Assembly: GCA_902560725.1 (NCBI GenBank)
Contig: CACEMR010000001.1
Location: 134,713 to 198,712 of the forward strand
Direction of reading: 5' to 3'
Source of the DNA: an uncultured Alphaproteobacteria bacterium
GTDB taxonomy: Bacteria > Pseudomonadota > Alphaproteobacteria > HIMB59 > GCA-002718135
Length of the DNA: 64,000 bases
Shown piece after piece: positions 17,205-52,689 of this stretch (position 1 is its first letter; each line of letters opens with the position of its first letter). The position numbers were made by a program, and so were the translations under genes. The notes under the pieces are model-generated. The model saw only the letters and a list, made by a program, of their open reading frames with translations. It was not told where the DNA came from and did not search any database.

Positions 17205-19184
17205 ATGAATTATGAGCCTAAAAAAGAAATAGCTGAAAAATTATTAGAAAGCTTTAATGAAAAACTTTATTTTGATGTAATAAAAAAAATATCAGAATTA
17301 CGTACACAGTATCCAGATTCAATTTTTTTATTAAATGTTTTAGGAGTAACATACAATAAATTAAATAAATACGATGAAGCAATTAAATGCTTTAATGACT
17401 TATTAAAAATTAATAAAAATTTTGCAGATGCATATTTTAATTTAGGTATAATTTATAAAAAAATAAAAGAAGAAAAAAAATCAATTTTTAACTATAATCA
17501 ATGCATAAAAATTAATCCAAAAAAATTTGAGGCATATAATAATCTAGGTAATATTTATAAAGAAAGACAGGAAATAAAAATTGCAATTAAAAAATATTTA
17601 CAATGTCTTGAAATAAATCCAAATTATATAATTGCACTTCAAAATTTTGCTGTTTGTTTACAAAATTTTAAATTTAACAAAACATCTAGCATAGTTGATA
17701 GACACATAATTAATTTGTTAGAGCAAGAAAAAATAGTAAGACCTGTTGATATTATTTTCACAATAATTGATTATCTTTATTTAAATCCAAAACTTAAACT
17801 TATTTTAAAAAATATAGATGATTTAGAAAATAATTTACCTCTAAATGAATTAGTTATGGAAATTTCTAATATTAAAATTTTAATACTATTAATAGAAAAT
17901 ACTCCAATAACTGATTTAAAAATTGAGAAAATTTTAAGATATTTAAGGTCAGAAATTTTATTAAATTTATCAACTTTAGAAAGCAGAAAAGTTGCATTAA
18001 AATTAATGAAATCACTAGCCAAACAATGTTTCATAAACGAATACATATATCCTTTCGGTAAAAAAGAAGAGGGTATTCTGAATAATATTGAAAAAAAAAT
18101 AATTAAAGATTTACAAAAAAATTCTTTTACACAAAACGACTTAGAAATTGCATGCTTGGCTGCTTATAGGCCATTACATATATTAAAATGGTCAAATAAG
18201 ATTAAGCAAATACCAAATCTAAAAGATTTAGTAAAACAGCAAATTAATGAACCACAGGAAGAACTTAATCTAAGAAAAAAATTACTTTCATTAAATATTA
18301 AAAATAAGATTTCATTAAATGTCAAAAATCAATATGAGAATAATCCATATCCTAGATGGAATAAAGTTGCTTTATATAGAATTCCAAAAAAACCTTTGAT
18401 GTTTTTCAAAAATCTTGAACTTAATATAAAAGAAGAAAATATTCAAAAATGGAAAAATATAAATGTATTAGTTGCTGGATGTGGAACTGGACAACACGCT
18501 ATAACAACAGCAACAAAGTATGAAAATTCATTTGTAACAGCTATTGACTTAAGTGCTCAAAGTTTATGCTATGCAAAAAGAAAAGCAGATGAATTTGAAA
18601 TTAAAAATATTGAATTTATTCAAATGGATTTATTGGACTTAAAAAAAATATCAAAAAAATTTGATATCATAGAAAGTGTTGGTGTGCTGCATCATATGGA
18701 TAATCCATTTAAAGGTTGGCAAATATTGAATGAATTTTTAAATCCTAATGGACTCATGATGATAGGTCTTTATAGCAAAATTGCGAGAGAGCATATTTCA
18801 AAAATTCGTAATGAAATAAAAAAAGAAAAAATTAATATTAATGAAGAAAATATAATAAAATATAGAGAAGAAATAATATCTTCTAAAAATTATAATTTTC
18901 ATTTAATAAAACAAAGTAGTGATTTCTTTTCGCTTAGCACTTTAAGAGATTTATTATTCCATGTCCAAGAACATACTTTTACAATTTCACAAATAATTAA
19001 AAATCTTAATCATTTAAAATTAACATTTTCTGGTTTTGAAAATAGAAACTTAATAAATTTATTTAAAAACAAAAACAATGACAAAAAAGATTTATATAAT
19101 CTAAATCTTTGGAAAAAGTTTGAAATTGATAATCCAAGAATTTTTGCAGGTATGTATCAATTTTGGTGTCAAAAAAATTTATAA
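17205..19184 (+). CDS. TPR-repeat protein fused to a class I SAM-dependent methyltransferase domain
   Basis: N-terminal TPR repeats (repeated A..YFNLG / AYNNLGNIY patterns), a central region of about 230 aa of unknown function, then SAM motif I VLVAGCGTGQHA with post-I IDLS and motif II DIIESVGVLHH. Confidence 0.7.
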   Translation: MNYEPKKEIAEKLLESFNEKLYFDVIKKISELRTQYPDSIFLLNVLGVTYNKLNKYDEAIKCFNDLLKINKNFADAYFNLGIIYKKIKEEKKSIFNYNQCIKINPKKFEAYNNLGNIYKERQEIKIAIKKYLQCLEINPNYIIALQNFAVCLQNFKFNKTSSIVDRHIINLLEQEKIVRPVDIIFTIIDYLYLNPKLKLILKNIDDLENNLPLNELVMEISNIKILILLIENTPITDLKIEKILRYLRSEILLNLSTLESRKVALKLMKSLAKQCFINEYIYPFGKKEEGILNNIEKKIIKDLQKNSFTQNDLEIACLAAYRPLHILKWSNKIKQIPNLKDLVKQQINEPQEELNLRKKLLSLNIKNKISLNVKNQYENNPYPRWNKVALYRIPKKPLMFFKNLELNIKEENIQKWKNINVLVAGCGTGQHAITTATKYENSFVTAIDLSAQSLCYAKRKADEFEIKNIEFIQMDLLDLKKISKKFDIIESVGVLHHMDNPFKGWQILNEFLNPNGLMMIGLYSKIAREHISKIRNEIKKEKININEENIIKYREEIISSKNYNFHLIKQSSDFFSLSTLRDLLFHVQEHTFTISQIIKNLNHLKLTFSGFENRNLINLFKNKNNDKKDLYNLNLWKKFEIDNPRIFAGMYQFWCQKNL

Positions 19185-20222
19185 TTTTTTCAAATTATTT
19201 AAATCTTCATCTACCATAATATTTACAAGTTGATTAAAGTTTACCTTTGGCTTCCAACCTAAAAGTTTTTTTATTTTAGTATAGTCTCCTTTTAGATATT
19301 CAACTTCATTTGGCCTAAAGTATATTTTATCAATTTTTACATGAATTTTATTTGTTTTTTTATCATAACCAACTTCTTTTATGCCTTTACCCTTCCAGGC
19401 AATTTTTATACCAACTCTTTTAAATGCTAACTCAATAAAATTTCTTACAGAATGAGTTTTATTTGTAGCTATCACAAAATCTTCTGGTTTTTTATATTGC
19501 ATTATTTTCCACATTGCATCAACATAGTCTACAGCATAACCCCAATCCCTATATGAGTTAAGGTTTCCAACATAAAGTACATCTCTTAATCCTAATGAAA
19601 TTTCTGCTACTGCTTTAGTAGTTTTTTTAGAAATAAAATTCTCTCCCCTAACAGGACTTTCATGGTTAAACATAATACCATTACATGCAAACAGACCATA
19701 TGCTTGTCTGTAAATTTTTGTATTCCAATATGCTAATAGTTTTGCAGATGCGTAAGGACTCACCGGCATAAAATCTGAATTTTCATTTAATGTTTTTTTT
19801 TGATTACCATACATTTCAGAAGTTGAAGCTTGGAAAAATTTGACAGATTTTTTAAACTTTAGCTTTGATATTGCATCTAATAATCTTAAGTTACCAATAC
19901 CATCAACATTTGTTGTATATTCTGGATTAATGAAACTTATAGCTACATGACTTTGAGCACCTAAATTATATATCTCATCAGGTTTAATTTTATTTAATAG
20001 ATCATAAAGAGACAAAGAATCTGTTAGATCCCCATAATGAAGAATAAGTTTTTTTCCCTTCATTTGATGTTCTTGATAAATTGAGTCAATTCTCTTTGTA
20101 TTAAAAGATGAGGCTCTTCTTTTAATTCCATGAACTTCATAGTTTTTATTAAGTAAAAATTTAGCTAACAAAGACCCATCTTGGCCAGTTATTCCAGTTA
20201 TAAATGCTATTTTTCTTTTCAT
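19179..20222 (-). CDS. gmd: GDP-mannose 4,6-dehydratase
   Basis: ITGITGQDGSLLAKFLL Rossmann motif, YASAK catalytic motif, and the NHESPVRGENF motif typical of Gmd. Confidence 0.9.
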   Translation of the reverse strand: MKRKIAFITGITGQDGSLLAKFLLNKNYEVHGIKRRASSFNTKRIDSIYQEHQMKGKKLILHYGDLTDSLSLYDLLNKIKPDEIYNLGAQSHVAISFINPEYTTNVDGIGNLRLLDAISKLKFKKSVKFFQASTSEMYGNQKKTLNENSDFMPVSPYASAKLLAYWNTKIYRQAYGLFACNGIMFNHESPVRGENFISKKTTKAVAEISLGLRDVLYVGNLNSYRDWGYAVDYVDAMWKIMQYKKPEDFVIATNKTHSVRNFIELAFKRVGIKIAWKGKGIKEVGYDKKTNKIHVKIDKIYFRPNEVEYLKGDYTKIKKLLGWKPKVNFNQLVNIMVDEDLNNLKKL

Positions 20223-21037
20223 ATATATTGCAATAAATTATCTCTTGTTTTTATACCAGTAATTTTTATTAATTTATAATTATTACAAATAATTTGACTG
20301 GGTTTTTTTGATTTTAATCTTTTATCAACTTCAATTTTTTTGTTAAATTTATTATAGGCGATTTTTAATGCTAAATCTTCAAGTGTTACACCATTACCAG
20401 ATCCACAATTAATAATACCATTATTTTTTTTAGATATAATGGAGCATAATTGTTTAGTTATATACTCTATTGAAGAGATATCTCTAATATTATTATAATT
20501 TTTTAATTTAATTTTATTACCTTTTAATTTTTTAATCTTATCAATTATTGAGGGTATTAAAAAATCTTTTGATTGCGATGGGGAATAATAGCTAAACAAT
20601 CTAATAATTAAATAATTTGTTAGATATTTCTGTATCTCTTTTTCTGATTTGAGTTTTAATTTTCCATAGTAAGTAAGTGGATTGATTCGAGATACTTCAG
20701 ATATTTTTTTTTTAGAACTTGAATAAACATGTGATGAGGAAATAAAAATTAATTTTTTTCTAGACTTGTAACTTTTCAATTTTTTAGTAAGGAATTTTAC
20801 ACTATTATAATTAACTTTTTCGGCATATTTTTTATTTTTATTTACATCATTTATAGAAGTTACAGCGGCTAAATGGAGAATTATATCAACTTTTTCTATC
20901 CATTTTTCGAAATTTTCTAAATTTAAAACATCAGATTTGTATAATGAGATAGTATATCTATTTTTTTCATATTTTTTTATGTAATTTATGATAGATTTTC
21001 CTAAAATTCCTTTATGACCCGTAATTCCTAAAATCAT
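20219..21037 (-). CDS. short-chain NAD(P)-dependent sugar epimerase/reductase (candidate 4-keto-6-deoxy-sugar reductase)
   Basis: ILGITGHKGILGKS Rossmann start and a YGKLK catalytic Y-x3-K. 272 aa, translationally coupled to gmd. Confidence 0.6.
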   Translation of the reverse strand: MILGITGHKGILGKSIINYIKKYEKNRYTISLYKSDVLNLENFEKWIEKVDIILHLAAVTSINDVNKNKKYAEKVNYNSVKFLTKKLKSYKSRKKLIFISSSHVYSSSKKKISEVSRINPLTYYGKLKLKSEKEIQKYLTNYLIIRLFSYYSPSQSKDFLIPSIIDKIKKLKGNKIKLKNYNNIRDISSIEYITKQLCSIISKKNNGIINCGSGNGVTLEDLALKIAYNKFNKKIEVDKRLKSKKPSQIICNNYKLIKITGIKTRDNLLQYI

Positions 21038-21045
21038 TTTATACC

Positions 21046-21747
21046 ATGAAAATACTTATAATAATTCCTGCATATAATGAAGACCAAAATATTGTTAATT
21101 TAATTAAAATTATTCAAAAAAATTATTTAAACTACGATATTTTAATAATTGATGACTCCAGTAATTCATTAACTAAAGAAATTATAGAAAAAAATAAATT
21201 CAAAAATTTAGAATACATTAAAAGGAATATAAAAATGGGTAGAGGAAATGCAGTCAGATTTGGTTTTGAGTACTCAATAAAAAAATTGTATGACTTTATA
21301 ATTGAAATGGATGCTGATTGTTCTCATGATCCTCATGAAATTAAAAATCTATTGGAAAAAATTACTAAAAATAATTTTGATTTAATTATAGGAAGTAGAT
21401 ATTTAAACAAAAGCAAAATTATAGGATGGCCTTTAAAAAGAAGAATTTTTTCAAAATTGGCAAACTTCTTAGCTAGGTTTTTATTTGGTTTTGATATAAC
21501 AGATTATACTAATGGATTTAGAATTTATAACAGAAAATCAATTATAGAGCTTATGAAATATGATATTAATAATCATGGTTTTATTTATCTAACTGAAACT
21601 TTAGTGATTTTAAAAAAGAAAAATTACCTTGTGGGAGAATGCTCTACAATATTTATAAATAGAAAGCATGGAAATAGTTCATTAAAAATAAATGAAATAA
21701 TAAATTCACTTTTAGGGATTTTTAAAATTAAAATAAGAAAAATATGA
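21046..21747 (+). CDS. family 2 glycosyltransferase, DPM1-like polyprenyl-phosphate sugar synthase type
   Basis: N-terminus ILIIIPAYNE and an EMDADCSHDP motif (DPM1-like DAD..H.P). 233 aa. Confidence 0.75.
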   Translation: MKILIIIPAYNEDQNIVNLIKIIQKNYLNYDILIIDDSSNSLTKEIIEKNKFKNLEYIKRNIKMGRGNAVRFGFEYSIKKLYDFIIEMDADCSHDPHEIKNLLEKITKNNFDLIIGSRYLNKSKIIGWPLKRRIFSKLANFLARFLFGFDITDYTNGFRIYNRKSIIELMKYDINNHGFIYLTETLVILKKKNYLVGECSTIFINRKHGNSSLKINEIINSLLGIFKIKIRKI

Positions 21748-22940
21748 ATTATTTTCCTTTAACAACTAATACTTTAAGCAATGAAGATAAAAAACTAGCG
21801 ATAGATGTTATAAAAAGTGGCAATATAACAAGAGGTAATTATAATAAATTAGTTGAACAATACTTTACTAAAAAATTTAAAAGATATGCATTATTAGTAA
21901 ATTCTGGTTCTTCAGCTAATTTGTTGGCATTTTCATTATTGGTAAATAAAAAAAGAAAATATAATTTAAAAAAAGATGATGAAATAATAATTCCTGCACT
22001 ATGCTGGTCTACATCATTATTTCCAATTATACAAATGGGTTTAAAACCTGTTTTTGTAGATGTTGATATTAAAACCTTAAATATTGATTTAAAAGAATTA
22101 GAAAAGAAAATAACCAAAAAAACAAAGGCTGTTATGTTAGTTCATGCACTAGCTAATTGTACAGATATAAGTTTACTGAAGAAGATTTTAAAGAGATATA
22201 AATTAATTCTGATTGAAGATGCTTGTGAGGCATTGGGCTCTAAATATAAAAATAATTATTTGGGTACGCATGGAGCACTTGCTTCCTTTTCATTTTATTT
22301 TTCTCATCATATTACTTCTGGTGAGGGTGGATTAATTTTATGTAAAAGTTATCAAGATTACAAAATTTTATTATCTTTAAGAGCACATGGGTGGTCAAGA
22401 GAAATTGATAATTTAAAAAGAAAAAAATCTAAAAGGTTTAATAAATTATTTAACTTCATAAATCTTGGATATAACTTAAGACTAACTGATATTCAGGCTG
22501 CATTACTTCTAAATCAGGTTAAAAAAATTGATAAATTTAAAGTTAATAGACTCTATAATTATAATCTAATTTGCAAAATATTTAAAAAAGATAAATTTTT
22601 AGAAAATCATTTAATATTTATAGCCAGTCAAAAAAATGCTGAAGTAAGTTGGTTTAATTTTCCGATTATTCTAAAAAAATTTAAGAATAGAAAAAGAGAT
22701 ATAGTATGTGAAAAACTTAATGAACTCGGAGTTGAGACAAGACCGATAATTAGTGGTGATTTTTCTAAACAAAAAGTGATTCAGGATGACTTTATGGATT
22801 TATCTAAATTACGATTTTCTAATGCTACTAAAATTAACAATTCTGGTTTTATGTTGGGTATTTCTTCTAATAAGTTAGAAAAAAAAATAGTAATAAGATT
22901 AGCAAATGATATCAAAAAAGTAATTAATGCAGTAAAATAA
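21744..22940 (+). CDS. DegT/DnrJ/EryC1-family PLP/PMP enzyme with His in place of the Schiff-base Lys (ColD/E1-like sugar 3-dehydratase candidate)
   Basis: NSGSSANLLA motif. The active-site stretch is SFSFYFSHHITSGEGG, where canonical aminotransferases have FSFH..K.IT.GEGG. It is adjacent to gmd. Confidence 0.65.
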   Translation: MNYFPLTTNTLSNEDKKLAIDVIKSGNITRGNYNKLVEQYFTKKFKRYALLVNSGSSANLLAFSLLVNKKRKYNLKKDDEIIIPALCWSTSLFPIIQMGLKPVFVDVDIKTLNIDLKELEKKITKKTKAVMLVHALANCTDISLLKKILKRYKLILIEDACEALGSKYKNNYLGTHGALASFSFYFSHHITSGEGGLILCKSYQDYKILLSLRAHGWSREIDNLKRKKSKRFNKLFNFINLGYNLRLTDIQAALLLNQVKKIDKFKVNRLYNYNLICKIFKKDKFLENHLIFIASQKNAEVSWFNFPIILKKFKNRKRDIVCEKLNELGVETRPIISGDFSKQKVIQDDFMDLSKLRFSNATKINNSGFMLGISSNKLEKKIVIRLANDIKKVINAVK

Positions 22941-22966
22941 ATATTTAATTATTTTAAATCATTAAG

Positions 22967-24769
22967 ATGAGCTTATTCCTTAGTTTTTATTTTACTGTTC
23001 CGTTAATTCTACTTGGTTATGGTTATATATTTTCTAGAATCATATTAAAAAATAATAATCACAAAATAGATATTGGTTTAATTGGATTACTAGGATTTTT
23101 ATTTCTTTATTTAATTTCAAATATAACACATTTTTTCATAAATTTTGATAACTCATTAATATTTATAATACAAATTTTAGGCATTATATTTTTTCTATAT
23201 TTATTGACTAGTTCTAATATTAAAAAATTTGATTTGTTTAAATTATTATTTCTTAGTATAATTTTTTTACCCATTGCAATTATTACAGAACCTAATGAAG
23301 ATTTTTATCATTATTATTTGCCTTATCTAAAATATTTAGAGTCATCAAAAATTATTTTTGGATTGGTAAATATTAATGACACTTTAGCTTACTCATCAAA
23401 TAGCTTTTATGATATTTTAGTATTATTTAAATATCCTTTCAGTTTTAAAAATTCCTACTCTATTCCTATTTTTTTCTTTTATATTTTTTACTTATTTTTT
23501 ATAATTAATAAAATTCTTAAATATAATGATTTTTTTTATATTTTTATATTTTTATTATCTCTTATTTCGTTCACAAGTTTAAGAGATTTTGGAACAAGTA
23601 TACCTCCACAGTTGGCATTAATAATTTGTGCTTGTTTAATTTATGAATGTTTAATTTACGGTTATAATGAAAATAAGATAACATTTGTTATAGTATTAAT
23701 CACACTAGCTATTATTTTAAGAATCAATAGTATATTGATACTACCATTATTTTTATTATTAATTTATTTTTTTTATAAAAAAATTCCAAATTATATTTAT
23801 AATAATATTATTATAGTTTTTACTATATTGTTAATTGTAATATTTTTTTTAGGAAAAAATCTTATACAATCCTCCTGTTTAGTTTACCCTATTCATAATA
23901 CATGTTTTTCAAATCTTGATTGGTCGACAGATTTAAAAATAGTAAATCAAAAATATAGCAAACTTCAAGCAGACTCTAAGGGATGGTCTTTTTATGCAAA
24001 AGAAAATTTCAATATTAAAGATAAATATGTATGGAAAAATTTGAACAAAGATAACTTTATTGAATATAAAGATTATGCAACAACAACACCTTTTTTTTGG
24101 ACTAAATATTGGATAAAAGATCCTAATTATAAAAAAATATTAAATTTATTTTTATCAGTTATTATTATTTATTTTTTGTTATTAATTAATTCTAAAAAAA
24201 ATTATAATTCACAATTCTTAGACAATAAGAATAATTTTATTTATCTTCTTTCGTTTTCATTTTTTTCATGTCTTGCTTGGTTTTATTTATCTCCTCAAAT
24301 AAGATATGGAGGGGCATTTTGTTTTATTTTTTTTTTCAGTATTTCTATAAAATACATTAATGAAAATTTGAATAGAGATATAAAAATAACAAATTTAATT
24401 TTAATTATATTGATTGTCTTTTCATATGTTGAATATAAAAATTTTAATAGGATTTATAGTAGTTTTCAAAATGAATTATTTGATAATTTTCCTTGGCCGA
24501 ATTTCCATGAATTACAAATAGATAATGATTTTATTATTGAAGAAAAGAATCGAATAAAATTTAATAAAAGGATTTACTCAAATAAGCTATTGTTTGATAA
24601 TAATAACGACTATATTTTAATGTGTGGAAATATTGATTTTCCATGTATTCCTGAAGGTAAAGAAGTGTGTTTAAATAAAGAAAAATCTAAATACGGGTAT
24701 TTATTTTATAGTCATAACAAAGAAAATGATAATTGTTATAATTTTATGAATAAAAATATTCTTTATTAA
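22967..24769 (+). CDS. large polytopic membrane protein of unknown family (GT-C-like candidate), paralog of 32131..33648
   Basis: 600 aa with more than 10 predicted hydrophobic helices. Shares colinear motifs with the 32131 ORF (LGYG, NEDFYHY, LRDFGTSIP, SSCLVYPIHNTCFSNLDW, RYGGAF). A Cys-containing soluble C-terminal region is present. Confidence 0.6.
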   Translation: MSLFLSFYFTVPLILLGYGYIFSRIILKNNNHKIDIGLIGLLGFLFLYLISNITHFFINFDNSLIFIIQILGIIFFLYLLTSSNIKKFDLFKLLFLSIIFLPIAIITEPNEDFYHYYLPYLKYLESSKIIFGLVNINDTLAYSSNSFYDILVLFKYPFSFKNSYSIPIFFFYIFYLFFIINKILKYNDFFYIFIFLLSLISFTSLRDFGTSIPPQLALIICACLIYECLIYGYNENKITFVIVLITLAIILRINSILILPLFLLLIYFFYKKIPNYIYNNIIIVFTILLIVIFFLGKNLIQSSCLVYPIHNTCFSNLDWSTDLKIVNQKYSKLQADSKGWSFYAKENFNIKDKYVWKNLNKDNFIEYKDYATTTPFFWTKYWIKDPNYKKILNLFLSVIIIYFLLLINSKKNYNSQFLDNKNNFIYLLSFSFFSCLAWFYLSPQIRYGGAFCFIFFFSISIKYINENLNRDIKITNLILIILIVFSYVEYKNFNRIYSSFQNELFDNFPWPNFHELQIDNDFIIEEKNRIKFNKRIYSNKLLFDNNNDYILMCGNIDFPCIPEGKEVCLNKEKSKYGYLFYSHNKENDNCYNFMNKNILY

Positions 24770-24775
24770 TTTTTT

Positions 24776-24845
24776 TGGCGGAGTGAGAGGGATTCGAACC
24801 CTCGATAGTGTTGCCACTATACACGCTTTACAAGCGTGCTGATTA
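24776..24845 (-). repeat. truncated tRNA-Ser 3-prime fragment (70 nt, att-like direct repeat, copy 1)
   Basis: Aligns with positions 28135..28204 of the intact tRNA-Ser, from the CCA end through the anticodon arm. It lacks the 5-prime acceptor strand and most of the D arm. It has one acceptor-stem change and one anticodon-loop change. Confidence 0.85.
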
Positions 24846-24905
24846 GGAAAGAATGAAAAGATTATAAAGAGAGTTTACAATTTAATATTAATTTTTGATG
24901 TAGAT

Positions 24906-24934
24906 AGTGTGTCGTATATGTGTCTAACATTTTA
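24906..24934 (+). repeat. imperfect direct repeat, copy A (AGTGTGTCGTATATGTGTCTAACATTTT)
   Basis: Similar to 25715..25748 (AAGTGTGCCGTATGTGTGCCGAAACACAATTTT). Each copy contains an internal GTGTGYC..GTGTGYC duplication. Confidence 0.55.
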
Positions 24935-24974
24935 CATGGTATTTGGATGATATTTCTTATAAGTATTATATCTA

Positions 24975-25658
24975 ATGAATATAATTATTAAAAACCTTAT
25001 TCTTGTTTTTATGCTTTTCTTTTCTAATAACAATATAGCTTATGGAGAAAAATATTTAGAAGTTATAAAATTATATGACTTATATTCTGAAGAAATTTTA
25101 GATATTGACCAACTATATTCTGGTCTTGAAAAAATGAACATAAGTAATGAAAATATTAAAAATTTAATTTCTCTAAGAAAAAGTGATATTCTTTCAGAAG
25201 ATGATTTTGTAAACGGTATAAAGAAAATTTTAGCAGAAGTTTCTAGTTTAGAAAATAAGTCAAAAGAAAATGAAAATGATATCAGTAAACAAAATATAAT
25301 AAAGCATGAGTTTCAAACGGAAATTACAATTATTCACAGTTTTATTATTTCTGATTTTAAATATGGAGAGATTTGGAATCATATGGTTGCACTAGATGGT
25401 GAAAAAATTATTGAAATGTCATTTAAAGATTCAAAAAATAATGATTTAATTAAATTAAGAAAACCTAAATTTAAAAACTTGAAAAATAATAAATTTGCTA
25501 TTCGATCAAGTGCAATTTATTTGCCAGAACCGTCAGTGGGTATTCGATATGATTTCAAAGGAGAATTTGTTAATAATAAAATTGTTGGTGAAGTTGAGAT
25601 TACATACACTGAGAGTGACGAGGCCGGTCTTGTTTTATTAAGAGCTAAAACAAATTAA
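24975..25658 (+). CDS. hypothetical secreted protein (signal peptide, two SHOCT-like short helical repeats, beta-rich C-terminal half)
   Basis: 227 aa with leader MNIIIKNLILVFMLFFSNNNIAYG. The segment LISLRKSDILSEDDFVNGIKKIL resembles the SHOCT consensus. No family was recognised for the C-terminal half. Confidence 0.55.
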   Translation: MNIIIKNLILVFMLFFSNNNIAYGEKYLEVIKLYDLYSEEILDIDQLYSGLEKMNISNENIKNLISLRKSDILSEDDFVNGIKKILAEVSSLENKSKENENDISKQNIIKHEFQTEITIIHSFIISDFKYGEIWNHMVALDGEKIIEMSFKDSKNNDLIKLRKPKFKNLKNNKFAIRSSAIYLPEPSVGIRYDFKGEFVNNKIVGEVEITYTESDEAGLVLLRAKTN

Positions 25659-25714
25659 TTAATTCAAAGTTTTTAAAGTAAAATGTGTGAGAAATTATAA
25701 TTTTTAATATATGT

Positions 25715-25748
25715 AAGTGTGCCGTATGTGTGCCGAAACACAATTTTG
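25715..25748 (+). repeat. imperfect direct repeat, copy B
   Basis: See 24906..24934. It lies 33 nt before tRNA fragment 2. Confidence 0.55.
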
Positions 25749-25780
25749 TTGGAAAATCGTTAAAGAAAAATCTTAATTAA

Positions 25781-25840
25781 TGGCGGAGAGAGAGGGATTC
25801 GAACCCTCGATAGTGTTGCCACTATACACGCTTTCCAAGC
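25781..25840 (-). repeat. truncated tRNA-Ser 3-prime fragment (60 nt, att-like direct repeat, copy 2)
   Basis: Matches 28135..28194 of the intact tRNA-Ser except for 4 substitutions that form two compensatory base-pair swaps in the variable-arm stem. Similarity stops abruptly inside the anticodon stem, exactly where base composition changes. Confidence 0.9.
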
Positions 25841-26039
25841 TATCGCCGTGAACTTTGCGGCTCTCTTCGTGTGCAAACAATCCTTGTTATATGGGATTAT
25901 ATTATACTAAATCACTGCAAGTGAATCGAAAAGTACTGAGTTAAGATATTCGCATATGGTTGGTCTGATAACTGGGGGTCTTTAGATTAACTTATTAAAT
26001 ATACTTGAAATATTTCGTATATATGTTGTAATAGATTAG

Positions 26040-26057
26040 GGAATTTTAGGAATTTTA
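26040..26057 (+). repeat. tandem 9-bp direct repeat GGAATTTTA x2 upstream of the glutaminase start
   Basis: Exact tandem duplication ending 19 nt before ATG 26077. Confidence 0.6.
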
Positions 26058-26076
26058 TCTATTTGAAAAAGAAATT

Positions 26077-28113
26077 ATGGGTGAGGTAAGGCAAATAAAA
26101 AAAGAAAAGTCAATTTCCCAATTGGAAAGGCTAAAAGCGCAAGGTCCACCAAGAGAGGCAAACTTATTTTATTCATTGTGTGAAAATGGCCAAGACAAAA
26201 TTAACAAAACTCAATTTAAACAAGCATTGTTTGATGCAGGATTAAGCTCTCTAGACTATCGTCTAAAAAGCCTCTTTGAGAAACTAGAAAAGCATGGTGA
26301 GCAAATAGATTTTGAAGAATTTATGTCTTTCACAAGAACAGGTGGATTACTCGCTGAAAAAGCTCTTCGCGGAGAACTTGCAGTTCCAGACTTCAGGGAT
26401 TTTTCGAGAAACTTGGATAAAATCTATGACGAAGTTCTTCCAAATAGGTCGGGAGACTTAGCTCGTTATATACCACCGCTTGCAGAGGTTGATCCAGAAC
26501 AATTCGGTATAGCGGTTGTTACTACTGATGGACAAATTTATCAGCGAGGTGATACGAATGTAGACTTCTCAATTCAATCAATGTGTAAACCTTTCAATTA
26601 CTCTTTTGCAATTGAGAATCTTGGATTAGAAAAAGTTAATCGTCATGTAGGTGTGGAACCCTCAGGTCGACAGTTTGATGATTTAACACTTATGGTAAAA
26701 GGCATGGGAGGCAGTAGCTTGTCACCTAACAATAAAGTTCCGTTTAATCCAATGGTAAATGCAGGGGCAATTATGACCACTGGTTTAATCAATCCAAGGG
26801 ATACAACAAATGATCGGCTTCAATATATAAGAGAACAGTTTGGTCGAATAATAGGTTGGAATAAAGAAGAAACTTCTGGTGTTAACTTGCCAAGATTTAA
26901 TAAGACAATGGCTCGCCAAGAAAACTTTAAAGGCTACAATAACATAGCTACAGGTTTCTTACTAATGGCTACAGGTAACATTCCTTACTCAGAGTCTTTA
27001 TTGCCCGATGATATTTACGAAGATAGTCAATATGAATATGATTTTTATGTAGAACCTGCAGTCACAAATGCTTTGAAAGTATACTTTAGTATTTGCTCAT
27101 TAGAAATGACAGGAAAAGATGTTGCCATGGCTGCAGCAACACTAGCCAATGGTGGCGTCTGTCCAATTACTCAAGATCGAGTTATGAGCCAAAAAACTGT
27201 TCGAAACGTACTTCCCGTTGTCCAAACAGCAGGAATGTATAATAGCAGCGGTCAGTTCTTTCAGGAAATAGGCTTACCATCAAAAAGTGGTGTTGGTGGC
27301 GGTATATTACTTATAGTCCCCCAGCTAATGGGAATCTGTATTTTTTCTCCTCGACTAGATTTAGTTGGAAATAGTGTGCGCGGCATTGATGTTGCAAGAA
27401 GAGTTACACAAAAATATCTCGTTCATGCTTTTGATGGTACTATGACTGATACCGATAGAATTGATCCCAAGCTTCCAATTGCAAGATGGCGAGCTAATAG
27501 TTGCGGAGAAGCAATATGGGCTGCAAGTAATGGCGATGTTAGAACTCTTGAACGCCTTGTTAGCCAGCAAAGAGATTTAGAAGCTGGCGATTATGACATA
27601 AGAACACCTCTTCATTTAGCCTCTGCTGAGGGACAATTAGAAGTGGTTAAGTTTTTGTTAAGCCACGGAGTAAAACCAATACCCGATCGATGGGGAGGTT
27701 ATCCAATTTCTGACGCAAGAAATAATAATCATCAAGAAATTATTGATGAATTTAACAAATTAGACATTGAGTATACAGAGCCTGTTCATTTGGTTGAGGA
27801 ACCAGAGGGGTTAACTGACGAAATGGTAACCTTTGATAATGAATTAATGGTAATCGAGTTACTCTTTGCTGCAGCTGAGAACGATGTTAATGGTTTAAGA
27901 CAACTAGTGGCCAAAGGAGTTCCTGTTCATGCTGGAGACTATGACTCTCGAACTTCATTACACCTTGCAGCAGCTGAGGGAAGTTTACAGGCGGTTAAAT
28001 ATTTGGTTTCTCATGGGCACCCTTTAAATGTTCGTGATCGATGGGGATCCACACCGTTAGATGAAGCCAAAAGAGAGAAGCGAGAAGAAGTTATTAAATA
28101 TTTGAGTCAGTAA
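26077..28113 (+). CDS. kidney-type (eukaryote-like) glutaminase: EF-hand-like N-domain + glutaminase core + two ankyrin-repeat modules
   Basis: Serine-beta-lactamase-like glutaminase motifs are present: [11 protein letters not shown] (S-x-x-K), [40 protein letters not shown]. The N-terminal segment [27 protein letters not shown] is colinear with animal GLS (recalled from memory). The C-terminus has GDYD.RT.LHLA.AEG...VK.L.SHG...DRWG..P repeated twice. Confidence 0.9.
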   Translation: [678 protein letters not shown]

Positions 28114-28134
28114 AAATTTCTATTTTATATTAAG

Positions 28135-28224
28135 TGGCGGAGAGAGAGGGATTCGAACCCTCGGTAGTATTGCTACTACACACGCTTTCCAAGCGTGCTG
28201 ATTAAACCGCTCTCACATCTCTCC
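28135..28224 (-). tRNA. tRNA-Ser (anticodon GGA), CCA encoded
   Basis: The minus strand reads GGAGAGATGTGAGAGCGGTTTAATCAGCACGCTTGGAAAGCGTGTGTAGTAGCAATACTACCGAGGGTTCGAATCCCTCTCTCTCCGCCA. It folds by eye: acceptor GGAGAGA/TCTCTCC, anticodon stem CACGC/GCGTG with loop TTGGAAA, long variable arm GTAGTA-GCAA-TACTAC, and T arm GAGGG-TTCGAAT-CCCTC. Confidence 0.92.
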
Positions 28225-28299
28225 TTTTAAAGACAAAGAACATATTTATTTATACATAATAAAATATATAAGTAACATTACAAATTTTAATTATATTTA

Positions 28300-29010
28300 A
28301 TGAATTCAAAACTTCAAAATCTCAGTATTGTTGTACCAGTTTACAACGAAGAAAAAACTTTACTAGAACTTTTAAAAAAAATTGAAGTATTAAAAAGTGG
28401 ATGTAATCTTGAAGTTATAATTATTAATGATGGTTCATCAGATAATTCAAGACAAATTATAGATAATAATAAAGACTTATATAGCAAAGCTATACACTTA
28501 GAAAAAAATTCTGGTAAAGGAAGAGCTGTTATTGAGGGAATAAAAGAATGCAATTATGATTATATTCTAATTCAAGATGCTGATCTAGAATATGACCCTA
28601 ATGATATTTTTATGTTTTTGAAAGAAAATGAAAAATTTAATTATGATTTAATTATGGGGAGTAGATTTATTGGTACTCGAAGATCTGTTCTTCATTTTTG
28701 GCATATGATTGGTAATAAATTCATAACACTATTATTTAACATATTAAATAATACTACTTTTACCGATATTTATTGTTGTTATTGTATGTTTAAAAGAGAT
28801 TTAATTGATGTAAATAATCTCAAATGTAATAATTGGGGTCAACAAGCTGAAATTCTAACTTATATAATTAATAAAGACTCTAAAATATATGAAATAGGAG
28901 TAAGCTACCACGGTAGAAAATATAGTGAAGGTAAAAAAATAAGATATTATGACGTATTTTCAGTTGTATACTGGATAATTTCAACAAAAATTAAAAAGTT
29001 TTTTCCATGA
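28300..29010 (+). CDS. family 2 glycosyltransferase, DPM1-like polyprenyl-phosphate sugar synthase type
   Basis: LSIVVPVYNEE N-terminus, INDGSSD, and an IQDADLEYDP motif. 236 aa. Confidence 0.8.
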   Translation: MNSKLQNLSIVVPVYNEEKTLLELLKKIEVLKSGCNLEVIIINDGSSDNSRQIIDNNKDLYSKAIHLEKNSGKGRAVIEGIKECNYDYILIQDADLEYDPNDIFMFLKENEKFNYDLIMGSRFIGTRRSVLHFWHMIGNKFITLLFNILNNTTFTDIYCCYCMFKRDLIDVNNLKCNNWGQQAEILTYIINKDSKIYEIGVSYHGRKYSEGKKIRYYDVFSVVYWIISTKIKKFFP

Positions 29011-30188
29011 AATGTAAAGTTTGTAACTCTACAAAAATAGTTGAAGTTGTTAATCTTGGAAAACAACCATTAGCAAATAAATATCCTAAAAATAATACTG
29101 AAATTTTAAATGAAAAAAAATTCATATTAAAAATTTTATTTTGTAAAAATTGCAGGGCAGGTCAAATTAAAAAAATAATTAATAGAAATATTTTATTTGA
29201 GGATTATTATTATCTTTCGTCTGTAAATAAAAAACTAAAAGAACACTTTGAAAGATTAGCCATTAAAATAAAAAAATATAATTTTGTAGTAGATATCGGT
29301 TCTAATGATGGTATTTTATTAAAACCTTTAAAAAAATTAAATGTAAAATCAATAGGAATAGACCCTTCGGTAAATGTAGGAAAAATAGCCAACGATAGAG
29401 GCTTAGAAACATATATAGGTTTTTTTGATAAAAATATTATTAAAAAAATACTGAAAAAAAATAATAAACCAGATTTAATCGTTGCATCTAGTGTTGTTAC
29501 ACATCTAGAAAATCCAATAAAGTTTGCTAAAGATATAAAGAGTTTTTTAGAAAAAGATGGAACATTAATTATAGAAATTGAATATCTTCAAAATTTTTTA
29601 AAAAATTTGGAATTTGAAAGATTTTATTTTGATAGACCATTCTATTATTCTGCAAATTCTATAAAAGAACTTTTCAGAAATGTTGGAATGAAATTATATG
29701 ATATTGAAAAAATTGAACCTCATGGTGGATCGTTAAGATGTTTCATTAAAAATTCATTAAATACAAAAATTTCAAATAGATGTAAAAAAATACTAAATAA
29801 TGAAAAACAAAATTTAAATTTAAATGCATTTAAAAAATTCAATAAACAAATTTACAAAAACTCTAAAATTTTAAAAGCCCAGTTAAATTATTTTAATAAA
29901 AAAGGTTATAATATTATTGGTTATGGTGCTCCAGCAAGAGTTTCAACAATTACTAATGTAGCAAAAATTGACTCAAGTTTAATTAAGTATATTATAGATG
30001 ATAGTCCGCTTAAACAGAATAGATTTTCTCCAGGAATGAATATTAAAATTTTACCAAGAAAAAATAATATAAATAAGAACATTGATGTAGTAATTGTATT
30101 TGCTTATGAGTATTTTAAAGATATTAAAAAATTTTTTACCAAAATAAAAGTTCAGTTTTTTAAACCAATTCCATTCGGTAAATTATAA
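29007..30188 (+). CDS. SAM-dependent sugar C-methyltransferase-like protein (N-terminal zinc ribbon + methyltransferase + C-terminal C-MT domain)
   Basis: CKVCNS..(28)..CKNCRAGQ zinc ribbon and VVDIGSNDG SAM motif I. The roughly 390 aa architecture resembles NDP-hexose C-methyltransferases (TylCIII-like). Confidence 0.65.
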   Translation: MKCKVCNSTKIVEVVNLGKQPLANKYPKNNTEILNEKKFILKILFCKNCRAGQIKKIINRNILFEDYYYLSSVNKKLKEHFERLAIKIKKYNFVVDIGSNDGILLKPLKKLNVKSIGIDPSVNVGKIANDRGLETYIGFFDKNIIKKILKKNNKPDLIVASSVVTHLENPIKFAKDIKSFLEKDGTLIIEIEYLQNFLKNLEFERFYFDRPFYYSANSIKELFRNVGMKLYDIEKIEPHGGSLRCFIKNSLNTKISNRCKKILNNEKQNLNLNAFKKFNKQIYKNSKILKAQLNYFNKKGYNIIGYGAPARVSTITNVAKIDSSLIKYIIDDSPLKQNRFSPGMNIKILPRKNNINKNIDVVIVFAYEYFKDIKKFFTKIKVQFFKPIPFGKL

Positions 30189-31228
30189 TGAGTACTTTGT
30201 TGCAATCCGATGTTGATACCATAATTAAAAATACAAAAAAAATATCAAACTATTTTAATGGAAAAAAAATATTAATAACCGGGGGAAATGGATTTTTAGG
30301 AAAATATTTTGTAGAAGTGTTTAAGGAGTATAATAAATATTTAAAAAAACCAGTTCAAATATACATTTATGATAAAACTTTCAAAAAAAATAAATTATTA
30401 AAATCATCTAATTTAAGTTTTATAAAAAAAGATGTTTCAAAAAAATTTTCTAATAGAAAAAAATTTGATGTTGTGATTCACGCAGCAGGAATAGCGAGTC
30501 CATTTTACTATAGAAAACAACCAATCGAAACTCTAGACGTAGCTATAAATGGCACAAGAAACTGTTTAGAAATTGCGAAAAAAAATAATGCGAAATTTAT
30601 TTTTTTTAGTTCTAGCGAAATATACGGTGATCCAGATAAGTATAACGTTCCAACAAAAGAGTCATATAGAGGTAATGTAAGCTCACTTGGACCTAGGGCT
30701 TGTTATGATGAAAGCAAACGATTAGGTGAAACATTGTGTTATATTTACAATAATTATTATAATCTACACACTAACATAATAAGACCTTTTAATATTTATG
30801 GTCCTGGAATGGGTCAAAAAGATTATCGTATATTTCCAAACTTTATTAGTAATATATTAAATAATAAAAAAATTAATATTTATGGATCTGGTAATCAAAC
30901 GAGAACATATTGCTATATTTCAGATGCTGTTGAGGGTTTTATAAGAGTGATATGTTCTGGTAAATCTGGAGAAGCATATAACATTGGAAATGACAAGCCT
31001 GAAGTTTCAGTTAAAGATATTTATAAAATATTTAAAAAAATTCATAATAAAAAAATAGATGCCAAATTTATAAGTCATCCTAAATCATATCCAGATGATG
31101 AACCACAAAGGAGATGTCCAAATATTAGTAAAGCAAAAAAAGATTTAAATTATAAAACAAGAGTTAATTTAGAAAATGGTTTAAAAATTTTTTTAGAGTG
31201 GGCAAAGACTAATTACAAAGTTTTCTAA
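30188..31228 (+). CDS. extended SDR NAD-dependent sugar decarboxylase/dehydratase (UDP-glucuronate decarboxylase/ArnA C-domain-like)
   Basis: ITGGNGFLGKYF Rossmann motif, SSSEIYGDP, and CYDESKRLGE (Y-x3-K), similar to UXS-type enzymes. Confidence 0.75.
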   Translation: MSTLLQSDVDTIIKNTKKISNYFNGKKILITGGNGFLGKYFVEVFKEYNKYLKKPVQIYIYDKTFKKNKLLKSSNLSFIKKDVSKKFSNRKKFDVVIHAAGIASPFYYRKQPIETLDVAINGTRNCLEIAKKNNAKFIFFSSSEIYGDPDKYNVPTKESYRGNVSSLGPRACYDESKRLGETLCYIYNNYYNLHTNIIRPFNIYGPGMGQKDYRIFPNFISNILNNKKINIYGSGNQTRTYCYISDAVEGFIRVICSGKSGEAYNIGNDKPEVSVKDIYKIFKKIHNKKIDAKFISHPKSYPDDEPQRRCPNISKAKKDLNYKTRVNLENGLKIFLEWAKTNYKVF

Positions 31229-31229
31229 T

Positions 31230-32123
31230 ATGATTAATATTGGTATTGTTGGATGTGGTCATTGGGCCTTAAAAATAATCAATGAGATAAATAATAATAA
31301 AAAATTTAATCTAACTTCTATTGTTTGCCGAAATAAAAATAGTAATTTCAAAACATTAAAAGTTTTTGATACTGTTGAAAAAATGATTAATGCAAATATA
31401 ATTGACTGTATATACGTTGCGGCCGAACCAAAATTAAATTTAGAAATTGTGAATCTTATAAAAAATAAAAAAATACCAATAATTTTAGAAAAGCCAGTTA
31501 CAGACACATTAATAAATGCAAAAGAATTAAAAAATATAGCAATAAATAATAATTTAATGATTTATCCAAATTTAACAAATTATTTTTCTGAAACGTTTAA
31601 TGAATTAAAAAATTTAGTGGATAATAATTTTTTAAAAATAAAAGAAATAATCATATATGAGGGAAATTTTGGTCCCTTTAGAAAAAATATTAACCCTATT
31701 TGGGATTGGGGCTACCATTCAATTTCTCTTTTATTTCTTTTATTTGATTATAAGAAATTTTCAGATGTCAAAAAAAAGGAAATTAAATCTAATAATATCT
31801 ATGGAAAAGGTATTGTAACTAAATTTTACTTTAAAATAAATTCAAAAATTAATGTAAAAATAATAACTGGTAATTTATTTAAAAAAAAAATAAGAAAGAT
31901 TAAAATTGTACTTAATAACAATGAAAATATTTTAAATGATATGATTGTTCATGAAATTAAATTTAATAATAAACAAATATTTAAAAATAAAAAATCACCA
32001 ATTTCTTCACTATTAAATACTTTTGAAAAATCAATTAAAATAAATGATTTTGAAATTTCTAACAATTTAATTGACGTATCTTACCACACAACTAAGTTTT
32101 TAGATAAATTTTACAGATGTTAG
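31230..32123 (+). CDS. Gfo/Idh/MocA-family NAD(P)-dependent oxidoreductase
   Basis: IGIVGCGHWA N-terminal Rossmann motif and an ILEKPV motif characteristic of the family. Confidence 0.6.
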   Translation: MINIGIVGCGHWALKIINEINNNKKFNLTSIVCRNKNSNFKTLKVFDTVEKMINANIIDCIYVAAEPKLNLEIVNLIKNKKIPIILEKPVTDTLINAKELKNIAINNNLMIYPNLTNYFSETFNELKNLVDNNFLKIKEIIIYEGNFGPFRKNINPIWDWGYHSISLLFLLFDYKKFSDVKKKEIKSNNIYGKGIVTKFYFKINSKINVKIITGNLFKKKIRKIKIVLNNNENILNDMIVHEIKFNNKQIFKNKKSPISSLLNTFEKSIKINDFEISNNLIDVSYHTTKFLDKFYRC

Positions 32124-32130
32124 TTATTAT

Positions 32131-33648
32131 ATGAGTATAGAATTTTTAAATCTTTTTCTTTATCCAATACTTACTCTAATAATTTTGATAAGTGTTCTGG
32201 GTTATGGAAATTTCTTCAATAATGTCTTCTCTTTAAATAAAATTGAATTAGAACTAAAAAATATAATATTCATCCAAGGATTAGTATTTGTTGGTTTTTT
32301 TTTTATTTTTATAAATTTTTTTATACCAATATCTAATTTTATAAGTTTATTAACAATACTATTAGGAGCATTATTATATTTTTTTTTTATTTATAAAAAA
32401 AAAATAAAGAGAAATGAAGTAATATTTATTTTATCCGTTCTAGTTTTTAGTATTATTTATTCATTTTATGCAGGATTTAATGATGACTTCAATTATCATT
32501 ATGAAACTATTAAAAACTACAAAAATAAAGATTTATTTGAAATTCTTCACCATAGAAGAGTAAGCTATAATTCTCATTGGTTATTTTTAACATCTATTTT
32601 TTCAGTAAGTTTTTTTACAAGTACACTATTCATTCTTTCATCTTTATTTTTTTCAATATCAATTTACGATTTTTTTAATTTATCCAGAAGAGCAATTAGA
32701 AATAAGGAGTACTATTTATCAATTACATCTTTTTTGATTCTCATTTTCTTTTTAGGGGTATTAAATCAACTTAAAGATTTAGGTACTGACATACCTGGTG
32801 TAATAATTAGTATTTATATTATAATTATTATTTTTAATCATTTATTAGATAAAAAAACTGAGTCAATAAATGATATTTTTTTAATTATATTATTACTATC
32901 TTTGTTTGCTTTTATAATTAAAATATCAAATGTTCTTATTTTTCTTTTTTTATTTTTTTTATTATTCAAAATAAAATATAATAAAATTAATTATCGGTGG
33001 TTTTTTTTAATTTGTTTAATTCCAGTTCCATGGTTTTTTCAAAATTATGTAATTAGTAGTTGTATAATTTGGCCAATAACTATTACGTGTATTTCAAATA
33101 CAGATTTAGCTATCAGTGAAATTTATTTAATTGAATCTTTTGCTAAAGGCGATCAAAATACATCTATTGATTTAAATAATCTTAGCTGGATTAAGTTGTG
33201 GCTTACTAATCACTCTTCTAAAATGTTAGAAACTTATTTTATATACTTTATTATACTAATAATACCCTTCATTTATGTTTTTTTTAAAAAAAGAAATAAT
33301 AAAATATTTATAATAAAATATTTAAAAGATAAATACTTAGGCATTAATTATAAATTTTTTATTTTAATTATTTTATTTTGTAATTTAATATGGTTTTTCT
33401 TTGCACCAGCCTATAGGTTTGGTGTATTTTATAATTTATTTTTTATAATCATATTATTGCTTCCATTGTGGTTATTTATGGTAGAAAATAATTATCAATT
33501 CATTTTAAAATATTCTAAAACAGTTTTAATAGTTATTTTTATCTATTTTATATTTGAAAATATTACCAGATTAGATTGGTACATGAAACGTTATGATGTT
33601 TGGCCGCCAATAAGCAAAGGTGAATTATTAGAAAGAAAAAATATTTAA
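32131..33648 (+). CDS. large polytopic membrane protein of unknown family (GT-C-like candidate), paralog of 22967..24769
   Basis: 505 aa and highly hydrophobic. Colinear motifs are shared with the 22967 ORF: [46 protein letters not shown]. Confidence 0.6.
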
Positions 33649-43320: not shown

Positions 43321-43349
43321 TTTATTAAAATATAAGTATTTTATCAAAG

Positions 43350-51727: not shown

Positions 51728-51728
51728 A

Positions 51729-52688: not shown

Positions 52689-52689
52689 G

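Follow-up and report, generated by a model that had tools for sequence, protein, structure and literature searches.

A 64-kb stretch of DNA from an uncultured marine alphaproteobacterium of the SAR11 type (contig CACEMR010000001.1; the window, in whose coordinates positions are given below) carries two gene modules, A (19179-24769) and B (28300-33648), each of which combines a small family 2 glycosyltransferase (GT2), enzymes that tailor a nucleotide sugar, and a large polytopic membrane protein of the family DUF8201. We propose, with a probability of roughly 0.6, that each module forms a self-contained glycosylation unit built around a lipid carrier, in the style of the Gtr and Arn systems. 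In the mechanism we favor, a peripheral GT2 without transmembrane (TM) helices would move the sugar onto undecaprenyl phosphate (Und-P) at the inner membrane face, as its homology to DPMS, ArnC, PpgS, and AglJ suggests, and the lipid-linked sugar would be flipped by a protein encoded elsewhere. The DUF8201 protein would then hand the sugar to an envelope acceptor on the periplasmic side; an invariant Asp, a GTD motif, a Cys pair, and a P..RYG motif are the residues we put forward for this transfer. We give about even odds to the broader proposal that DUF8201, or LIC_10190, is an unrecognized and very large family of periplasm-facing glycosyltransferases, which take Und-P-linked rare sugars from DPM1-like GT2s without TM helices and form part of interchangeable SAR11 envelope modules outside the main hypervariable region. 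An Arn/Gtr-style logic had been suggested in a preliminary description of the window; the class of the GT2s and their constant pairing with DUF8201 bear it out, while membership of the DUF8201 proteins in the GT-C class is not established and the window supplies no flippase.

The pairing of a DUF8201 gene with a particular class of GT2 extends well beyond the window. We examined the gene contexts of diverse family members, 19 species-representative genomes, and 80 metagenome contigs. GT2 classes were first set by NCBIfam on ten small GT2s, among which those adjoining DUF8201 were AglJ-, PgfS-, Dol-P-hexose-, or ArnC-like and the remaining GT2s of those clusters were TuaG-, WcaA-, or EpsE-like. 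Two small hidden Markov models (HMMs), one DPM-like and one TuaG-like, were built from these sets, so the classifier is partly trained on the neighbors themselves; the GT2s of loci L009, L010, and L022, which lie outside the HMM training set, still score as DPM-like. A DPM-class GT2 was found beside or in an operon with DUF8201 in about 8 to 9 of 10 distinct arrangements, and the pairing is kept across three DUF8201 subfamilies (20-30% identity) with varied gene orders and orientations. For a third subfamily, of about 560 aa, we counted 44 metagenome loci with at least 1 kb of sequence on both sides: a DPM-like GT2 lay within 400 nt in divergent orientation in 26 and within 3.5 kb in 35, whereas a TuaG-like GT2 lay within 400 nt in only 4. 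The co-occurrence of GT2 and membrane protein, which the preliminary description had singled out for checking, is thus seen both across arrangements and across loci.

The arrangements themselves are diverse. The module A order, in which gmd and a short-chain dehydrogenase/reductase (SDR) gene diverge from GT2-ColD-DUF8201, is present in the window, L001, and L028, and the module B order (GT2, C-methyltransferase, UXS-like SDR, Gfo/Idh/MocA oxidoreductase, DUF8201) in about 15 genomes. An SDR-MT21 pair divergent from GT2-DUF8201 forms a four-gene island among tig-clpP-clpX-lon in L002; a GT2 diverges from DUF8201-MT21-epimerases in L003 and L008, where the surrounding glycan cluster is large and includes a WecA-like phosphoglycosyl transferase (PGT); an epimerase-unknown-GT2 set diverges from DUF8201 in L009, L017, and L018; and GT2-SDR diverges from DUF8201 in L022. 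In L010 and L011, DUF8201 converges with a GT2 that is fused to the Pfam domain GtrA_DPMS_TM (43.9 bits, cut-off 26.1), and the DUF8201 protein there is an ortholog of the module A protein at 49% identity. Through this fusion, the partner GT2 is linked directly to the DPMS/GtrB type. A second link is provided by an SMR gene that precedes DUF8201 in L004 and L005, near a small DPM-like GT2 gene flanked by two GT-C genes (Pfam GT22/PMT_2). In L004 (MarineAlpha5, GCA_002938205.1, 7559-13684), DUF8201 and classical GT-C genes share one neighborhood, and the slot adjoins lepA-pheT, as in the window. Two loci depart from these patterns: a TuaG-like GT2 alone is adjacent to DUF8201 in L006, and the DUF8201 locus of L007 is full of frameshifts. 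We also observed a second AglJ-like GT2 of 227 aa in L003 (12363-15543), beside a DegT gene and the gene of a 414-aa protein that has no annotation and about 10 TM segments; this protein may be part of another GT2-polytopic pair or the polymerase of that cluster. Separately, a 4-kb contig binned as 'Marinoscillum sp.' (L020, CAZYIL010000145.1; G+C 20%) carries a Gfo/Idh/MocA gene and a DUF8201 protein 45% identical to that of module B, and is most likely a misbinned SAR11 contig.

The two GT2s of the window best resemble the polyprenyl-phosphate sugar synthase class (DPMS, ArnC, PpgS, AglJ, and GtrB) in sequence, and their best matches span the whole catalytic domain. For GT2-A (233 aa, 21046-21747, + strand), the best NCBIfam profile was PpgS, a polyprenyl-phospho-GalNAc synthase, at 80 bits, followed by AglJ and ArnC; the best structure in the Protein Data Bank (PDB) was Pyrococcus furiosus DPMS (5mlz, 5e-25, residues 1-228), and three ArnC structures and GtrB came next. 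GT2-B (236 aa, 28300-29010, +) matched AglJ best (93 bits), then ArnC (79 bits), and its PDB matches were ArnC (3e-16), DPMS (8e-16), and GtrB (7e-11). A DAD motif is present in both proteins, at D89-A90-D91 in GT2-A and D93-A94-D95 in GT2-B.

The membrane proteins that accompany these GT2s belong to one family. DUF8201-A (600 aa, 22967-24769, +) has about 14 TM segments and ends in a beta-rich periplasmic domain of some 90 residues that contains conserved cysteines; the polytopic DUF8201-B (505 aa, 32131-33648, +) lacks this domain. The similarity between the two is weak by BLASTP (26% over 220 aa, E 1e-3). When alignments of each protein with its homologs (A1 and A2) were compared profile to profile with hhalign, the probability was 100% (E 4.8e-45, 483 columns), which makes DUF8201-A and -B distant paralogs of about 20% identity, as the preliminary description had held. 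Both are members of NCBIfam NF047510 ('LIC_10190 family membrane protein') and Pfam PF26626 (DUF8201). The NF047510 score of DUF8201-A is 102.2 bits (cut-off 100), DUF8201-B matches the same profile, all 48 of the 48 A- and B-type members sampled do so as well (best 3.5e-41), and every database homolog of either type carries a precomputed PF26626 annotation. In the Pfam set that we scanned, which is without PF26626, the 600-aa protein had no match and the 505-aa protein a weak match to DUF6056, a domain that 3 of 31 alignment members also matched in a permissive scan (E<=1). A profile of both types, searched against 1.84 billion representatives, gathered 6,919 clusters (50% identity) at E<=1e-3 and 1,377 at 1e-30. 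DUF8201 is already catalogued as a family; what would be new is a functional assignment, given that our literature searches turned up neither a published function for LIC_10190 or DUF8201 nor any paper in which either name appears.

The predicted structures of these proteins suggest an enzyme that faces outward. The AlphaFold2 (AF2) models were confident (pLDDT 87.6 for DUF8201-A and 87.0 for DUF8201-B; pTM 0.91 for both). Topology was assigned by a heuristic in which model helices were taken as membrane segments and positive-inside counts were made over 48 sequences; K+R per residue was 0.21 in short 'in' loops versus 0.09 in 'out' loops. The topology so predicted for DUF8201-A has 14 TM segments with both termini outside. 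Its invariant residues are D112, G209, C304, C313, and P443, and predicted to be periplasmic are D112 (E/D-D-F-x-Y-H), G209 (G-T-D-x-P), C304/C313, P443 with R446 (P-x-x-R-Y-G), and the C-terminal domain. D112, whose counterpart in DUF8201-B is D118/D119, would lie in a 60-residue periplasmic loop with short helices. Given that all of the invariant residues are predicted to be periplasmic, the protein looks like an outward-facing enzyme and not like a transporter. In Foldseek searches against the PDB, the stand-out matches of both models were exclusively GT-C enzymes: PglB for the 505-aa model (probability 0.97 and 0.91, TMq 0.37-0.38, E 0.13), with Pmt4 in addition, and EmbB/EmbC for the 600-aa model (probability 0.72/0.66, TMq 0.31), with ArnT (0.16) and ALG3 lower down. 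Transporters reached a probability of at most 0.06, with TM scores of 0.07-0.16 compared to 0.31-0.38 for the GT-C enzymes. Neither WaaL nor Wzy was among the Foldseek matches, where the SEDS protein FtsW had a probability of 0.14 at most, and no Wzy_C or O-antigen ligase domain was matched by Pfam in the DUF8201 proteins. On these models, DUF8201 appears GT-C-like in logic and weakly so in fold; its sequence places it in no GT-C family. We also considered that the four N-terminal DUF8201 helices might be a fused GtrA-like flippase; this idea was rejected, as an hhalign comparison with the GtrA domain of L010 came back empty.

Several observations weigh against the glycosylation units that we propose, beginning with the nature of the evidence, which is computational throughout (sequence, profiles, predicted structures, and gene context) and not biochemical. 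The Foldseek matches did not reach significance (best E 0.13 and 0.36, all TM scores below 0.4), so that the fold comparison called for in the preliminary description points to GT-C enzymes and to nothing else among its stand-out matches, but does so at E 0.13-0.36 and TM 0.31-0.38. PDB profile searches with A1 and A2 gave only noise for a GT-C link, permissive Pfam scans (E<=1) found PMT_2 in 1 of 37 members (0.003), and hhalign of DUF8201 against single GT22/PMT_2 proteins and a 17-sequence GT22/PMT_2 alignment, built from a neighboring locus, gave probabilities of at most 2%; GT22 may be the wrong GT-C class for this last comparison because the Foldseek matches are mostly to PglB, PMT, and Emb. 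The predicted catalytic acidic loop follows TM4 with the N terminus outside, whereas classical GT-C enzymes have the catalytic loop after TM1 and the N terminus inside. The NCBIfam scores of both GT2s are all far below the equivalog cut-offs, and thus a class can be assigned but a substrate cannot. Hydropathy revealed no TM or hydrophobic segment in GT2-A or GT2-B, unlike GtrB, ArnC, and Pyrococcus DPMS; the short, peripheral type of GT2 represented by PpgS and human DPM1, which is not known to have TM helices, is a closer parallel. Polytopic open reading frame (ORF) screens found no GtrA, SMR, or MATE flippase gene in the window. Finally, about 20% of the loci of the 560-aa subfamily are without a DPM-like GT2 within 3.5 kb, and members of this subfamily sit inside O-antigen-like polysaccharide clusters that encode a WecA-like PGT, a setting in which DUF8201 might have the role of a polymerase or ligase.

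That role leads to the alternative that survives best, although we consider it unlikely: DUF8201 could be a Wzy-like polymerase or a WaaL-like ligase acting on glycans linked to undecaprenyl diphosphate, with the small GT2 as an ordinary cytoplasmic transferase. The clusters that house the 560-aa subfamily hold, besides the WecA-like PGT, GT4s and TuaG-like GT2s and no polymerase or ligase recognized by Pfam; Wzy proteins are very diverse and often have no Pfam match, and the conserved periplasmic R446 could bind diphosphate. However, the modules in the window, L001, and L002 hold a single glycosyltransferase and neither a PGT nor a flippase, and there is therefore no repeat unit to polymerize. 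The partner GT2 is of the polyprenyl-phosphate synthase class and in one arrangement is fused to GtrA_DPMS_TM, the Wzy_C, ligase, and WaaL comparisons described above were negative, and in L003 the separate 414-aa protein could be the polymerase. Neither of the outcomes by which the preliminary description would have been refuted was observed: the membrane proteins matched no Wzy, ligase, or transporter, and the GT2s do not fall in the ordinary chain-extending class.

We regard it as very unlikely that DUF8201 instead flips or transports the lipid-linked sugar that the GT2 makes, with the transferase encoded elsewhere. The modules contain no other flippase candidate, the pairing with the GT2 is constant, and the GT-C fold matches are sub-threshold, all of which would fit such a role. 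What argues against it is that the invariant residues, the conserved disulfide-type Cys pair, loops of 60 to 80 residues, and the beta domain of type A are predicted outside, unlike in the four-TM GtrA/SMR proteins or MATE, that the fold scores for transporters are well below those for GT-C enzymes, and that in relatives DUF8201 is accompanied by a distinct GtrA domain or SMR gene. Least probable of all, in our judgment, is that adjacency reflects operon packing, with GT2s that use a non-lipid acceptor and a DUF8201 protein that is, for example, a membrane anchor or an acyl- or phospho-transferase: the below-cut-off GT2 matches, the missing TM helices of the GT2s, and the lack of a characterized DUF8201 member would allow it, but the pairing persists in at least three deeply diverged subfamilies (20-30% identity) in differing orders and orientations, and every module brings its own nucleotide-sugar tailoring genes. 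We leave a slim chance that none of these four readings is right.

The genes of each module suggest which sugar it might deliver. The ORF list reproduced exactly the coordinates given earlier for all ten module genes, whose neighboring starts and stops overlap or almost touch, and Pfam, NCBIfam, and PDB matches confirmed the content first reported for module A (gmd, an SDR, and, divergent from them, a DPM1-like GT2, a ColD-like enzyme, and the 600-aa polytopic protein). The gmd gene (19179-20222, - strand) encodes a GDP-mannose 4,6-dehydratase (TIGR01472, 514 bits, cut-off 415; Pfam GDP_Man_Dehyd, 5.6e-134). Next to it lies a gene for a 272-aa SDR (20219-21037, -; Pfam Epimerase and RmlD_sub_bind), whose best PDB matches are dTDP-4-dehydrorhamnose reductases (1e-15) and the GDP-6-deoxy-D-lyxo-4-hexulose reductase 2pk3; this enzyme is likely a 4-ketoreductase acting on a GDP-4-keto-(3,)6-deoxyhexose. 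The SDR and GT2-A genes are divergent and just 8 bp apart. Downstream of GT2-A lies a gene of the DegT family (21744-22940, +) for a ColD-type, pyridoxamine phosphate-dependent GDP-4-keto-6-deoxymannose 3-dehydratase (PDB ColD 2gms/3gr9, 8e-73 over 371 residues). The catalytic His that replaces the aminotransferase Lys is kept, with 'FSHHI' opposite 'YSHHI' of ColD 2gms, and the entry for the H188N ColD mutant, 3b8x, shows 'YSNHI' at this site. In the pathway we envisage, Gmd would form GDP-4-keto-6-deoxymannose, the ColD-type dehydratase would take off the 3-OH, and the small SDR would reduce C4. This route would most likely yield a GDP-3,6-dideoxyhexose of the colitose/tyvelose class; whether it would be colitose or the D-series isomer depends on whether the 272-aa SDR also epimerizes.

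Module B was originally described as tightly coupled, and its junctions agree with this: in gene order, the first two are overlaps of 4 and 1 nt and the last two gaps of 1 and 7 nt. The five-gene content (GT2, C-methyltransferase, UXS-like SDR, Gfo/Idh/MocA oxidoreductase, and the 505-aa protein) was confirmed. The second gene (29007-30188, +; Pfam Methyltransf_13, _23, and _14) encodes an NDP-sugar 3-C-methyltransferase of the TylC3/TcaB9 type, with PDB matches to the D-mycarose 3-C-methyltransferase 4rv9 (1e-50) and TcaB9 (4e-48). The UXS-like SDR (30188-31228, +) matches human UXS1 (2b69, 1e-52) and the ArnA C-domain (about 1e-19) in the PDB, with NCBIfam matches below the equivalog cut-offs, and may be a UDP-glucuronate decarboxylase or form a 4-keto sugar. 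The Gfo/Idh/MocA oxidoreductase (31230-32123, +; Pfam GFO_IDH_MocA, 5e-13; PDB matches weak) is a possible sugar ketoreductase. With less certainty than for module A, we suggest that the UXS-like SDR would give a UDP-4-keto sugar, that the TylC3-type enzyme would add a C-methyl group beside the keto group, given that TylC3/TcaB9-type enzymes methylate the carbon next to a 4-keto group, and that the Gfo/Idh/MocA enzyme, or the UXS-like SDR itself, would carry out the reduction to a C-methyl-branched sugar. We would tentatively place the product, with low certainty, as a C-methyl-branched pentose or 6-deoxyhexose. The preliminary description had assigned neither sugar; the enzymes narrow both (Gmd, ColD, and a 4-reductase-like SDR in one case, a UXS-like SDR and a 3-C-methyltransferase in the other), and the exact products are predictions from these enzyme classes.

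The modules can be compared with four known pathways. The Gtr seroconversion system, which belongs to the wider three-component framework of periplasmic glycosylation (PMC11127046), consists of the flippase GtrA, the Und-P-glucose synthase GtrB, and a GtrC-type GT-C enzyme. Like it, the modules pair a small DPM1/GtrB-class GT2 with a large polytopic protein that has conserved residues predicted to be periplasmic, are self-contained and apart from the main glycan cluster, and have relatives with a GtrA fusion or an SMR gene. Unlike it, they have no flippase gene in the window and their GT2s no TM helices, the DUF8201 proteins show no significant sequence or fold match to Gtr/GT-C families, and the modules carry their own sugar-tailoring genes, whereas Gtr uses UDP-Glc. 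A further difference is that scans of viral contigs, made with a pattern-based method, found no phage-borne relatives of either DUF8201 paralog. A BFVD fold search with the 505-aa model gave a sole match, A0A514K2W1, an uncharacterized 326-aa protein of a Nitrosopumilus spindle-shaped virus (probability 0.99, TMt 0.55, E 0.19), and no Gtr-type match.

The likeness to the Arn pathway lies in the UXS/ArnA-like decarboxylase of module B (the first of its sugar-tailoring steps), the DegT-family enzyme of module A, the ArnC-like GT2 (GT2-B, 3e-16), and the ending in a polytopic, proposed periplasmic, transferase. The modules are, however, without a formyltransferase, a deformylase, and ArnE/F; the DegT enzyme of module A is a ColD dehydratase rather than an aminotransferase, module B has a C-methyltransferase in addition, and the fold match of DUF8201 to ArnT is sub-threshold (probability 0.16). 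In the mycobacterial galactosamine pathway, PpgS (Rv3631) is not known to contain membrane helices and supplies a large GT-C enzyme, the same layout of short GT2 and large polytopic protein as in the modules. PpgS/Rv3779 resembles module A further in that the PpgS profile, of about 226 positions, is the best NCBIfam match of GT2-A; at 80 bits against a cut-off of 370, however, GT2-A does not qualify as an ortholog; the sugar is also a different one, and DUF8201 is not a recognized GT-C protein. The colitose pathway (Gmd, ColD, and ColC) is approached by module A through a Gmd above its equivalog cut-off and a ColD match of 8e-73 that keeps the catalytic His. It differs in that the third enzyme of module A is an RmlD/Rmd-like SDR and not a clear ColC (an Fcl-like epimerase-reductase), and hence the product may be a D-series 3,6-dideoxyhexose, and in that the proposed delivery is through a lipid-phosphate carrier and not a Leloir transferase in the O-unit.

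The region that holds the modules varies among strains in one part and is conserved in another. The landmark between them is a tRNA-Ser(gga) gene (28135-28224, -; ARAGORN), where two islets have been inserted. The 3' part of this tRNA occurs in three direct copies, partial at 24777-24845 and 25782-25838 and within the intact gene at 28135-28224, that bracket two tandem islets (24777-28224), at which no integrase is present. In L028, which is 99.1-99.4% identical over 21.5 kb, both modules are present and separated by the tRNA-Ser alone; exactly the 3,265-nt insertion 24846-28110 is missing. Islet 1 encodes a 227-aa protein (24975-25658, +) with no Pfam or NCBIfam match. Islet 2 encodes a 678-aa glutaminase (26077-28113, +) that carries an EF-hand_14 domain at its N terminus and ankyrin repeats at its C terminus, the domain order of animal kidney-type enzymes; it matches human KGA (8gwr_B, E 1e-96, residues 24-568), and its G+C is 39% compared to 22-25% around it. 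The gene appears to be of eukaryotic type and a recent arrival in a SAR11-type genome, and a look-up of the exact sequence found it on record nowhere else.

The more distant L001 keeps the whole synteny, with LepA 94%, PheT 79%, and Gmd 89% identical, whereas the other module proteins are 46-74% identical (DUF8201-A 62%, DUF8201-B 46%). Beside lepA, module B forms a fixed block of five genes (19 species representatives; about 15 related genomes), conserved in content and diverging fast. By contrast with this fixed block, the slot that runs from the TPR-methyltransferase gene to tRNA-Ser is occupied by module A, by another DUF8201 module, by unrelated genes (GDSL lipase, radical SAM/MORN), or by nothing. 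The proposal that the tRNA-Ser marks a strain-variable region thus holds for the module A slot and the two small islets and not for module B. The TPR-methyltransferase gene, which is always immediately upstream of the variable slot, encodes a 659-aa protein with TPR repeats and an S-adenosylmethionine-dependent methyltransferase domain (17205-19184, +) and overlaps gmd convergently by 6 nt at its 3' end. At 43-58% identity versus 94% for LepA, it is among the fastest-diverging genes of the region, and it could be part of the same surface-modification region. The main SAR11 hypervariable region lies between tRNA-Phe/His and tRNA-Arg (preprint 10.64898/2026.04.03.716430). The two-module region is distinct from it.

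Elsewhere, the window (G+C 27% overall; 22% in both modules versus 31% for lepA-pheT) contains few polytopic proteins. A hydropathy screen of its ORFs of at least 100 aa found two ABC permeases and the two DUF8201 proteins only, and no free-standing small polytopic ORF was found. Given these four proteins and the lack of a small one, the screen of all ORFs of at least 100 aa places no Wzx, Wzy, WaaL ligase, Wzm or other ABC exporter, or membrane PGT in the window, in agreement with the initial impression that this is not a classical O-antigen locus. A promoter and terminator scan was uninformative, as its counts equaled the shuffled expectation in this AT-rich DNA. Downstream, at 40290-43347 and 51642-53897, lie lipopolysaccharide (LPS)-related genes: two GT9 genes of the heptosyltransferase family, one GT4 gene, a KpsF-like SIS+CBS isomerase gene, and an LptA-like gene. 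These genes for LPS core synthesis and transport could supply the acceptor. Our first guess for the acceptor of the proposed units would be the LPS core or O-chain, given that the LPS genes lie 7-20 kb downstream of the modules and that the third DUF8201 subfamily occurs in polysaccharide clusters with a WecA-like PGT.

SAR11 are the most abundant marine bacteria, and their surface glycans, thought to govern phage and grazer recognition, are hardly known chemically. If our reading is true, it would provide a function and a donor-acceptor logic for a large membrane family that is listed merely as a DUF, and a new transferase family would join the three-component systems that use lipid-phosphate sugars. 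Two rare sugars, one C-methyl-branched and the other a 3,6-dideoxyhexose, would be expected on the SAR11 cell surface, and SAR11 surface variation would extend beyond the well-known hypervariable region, with a conserved module by lepA and a variable module in the tRNA-Ser slot together giving strain-level variation of the cell surface.

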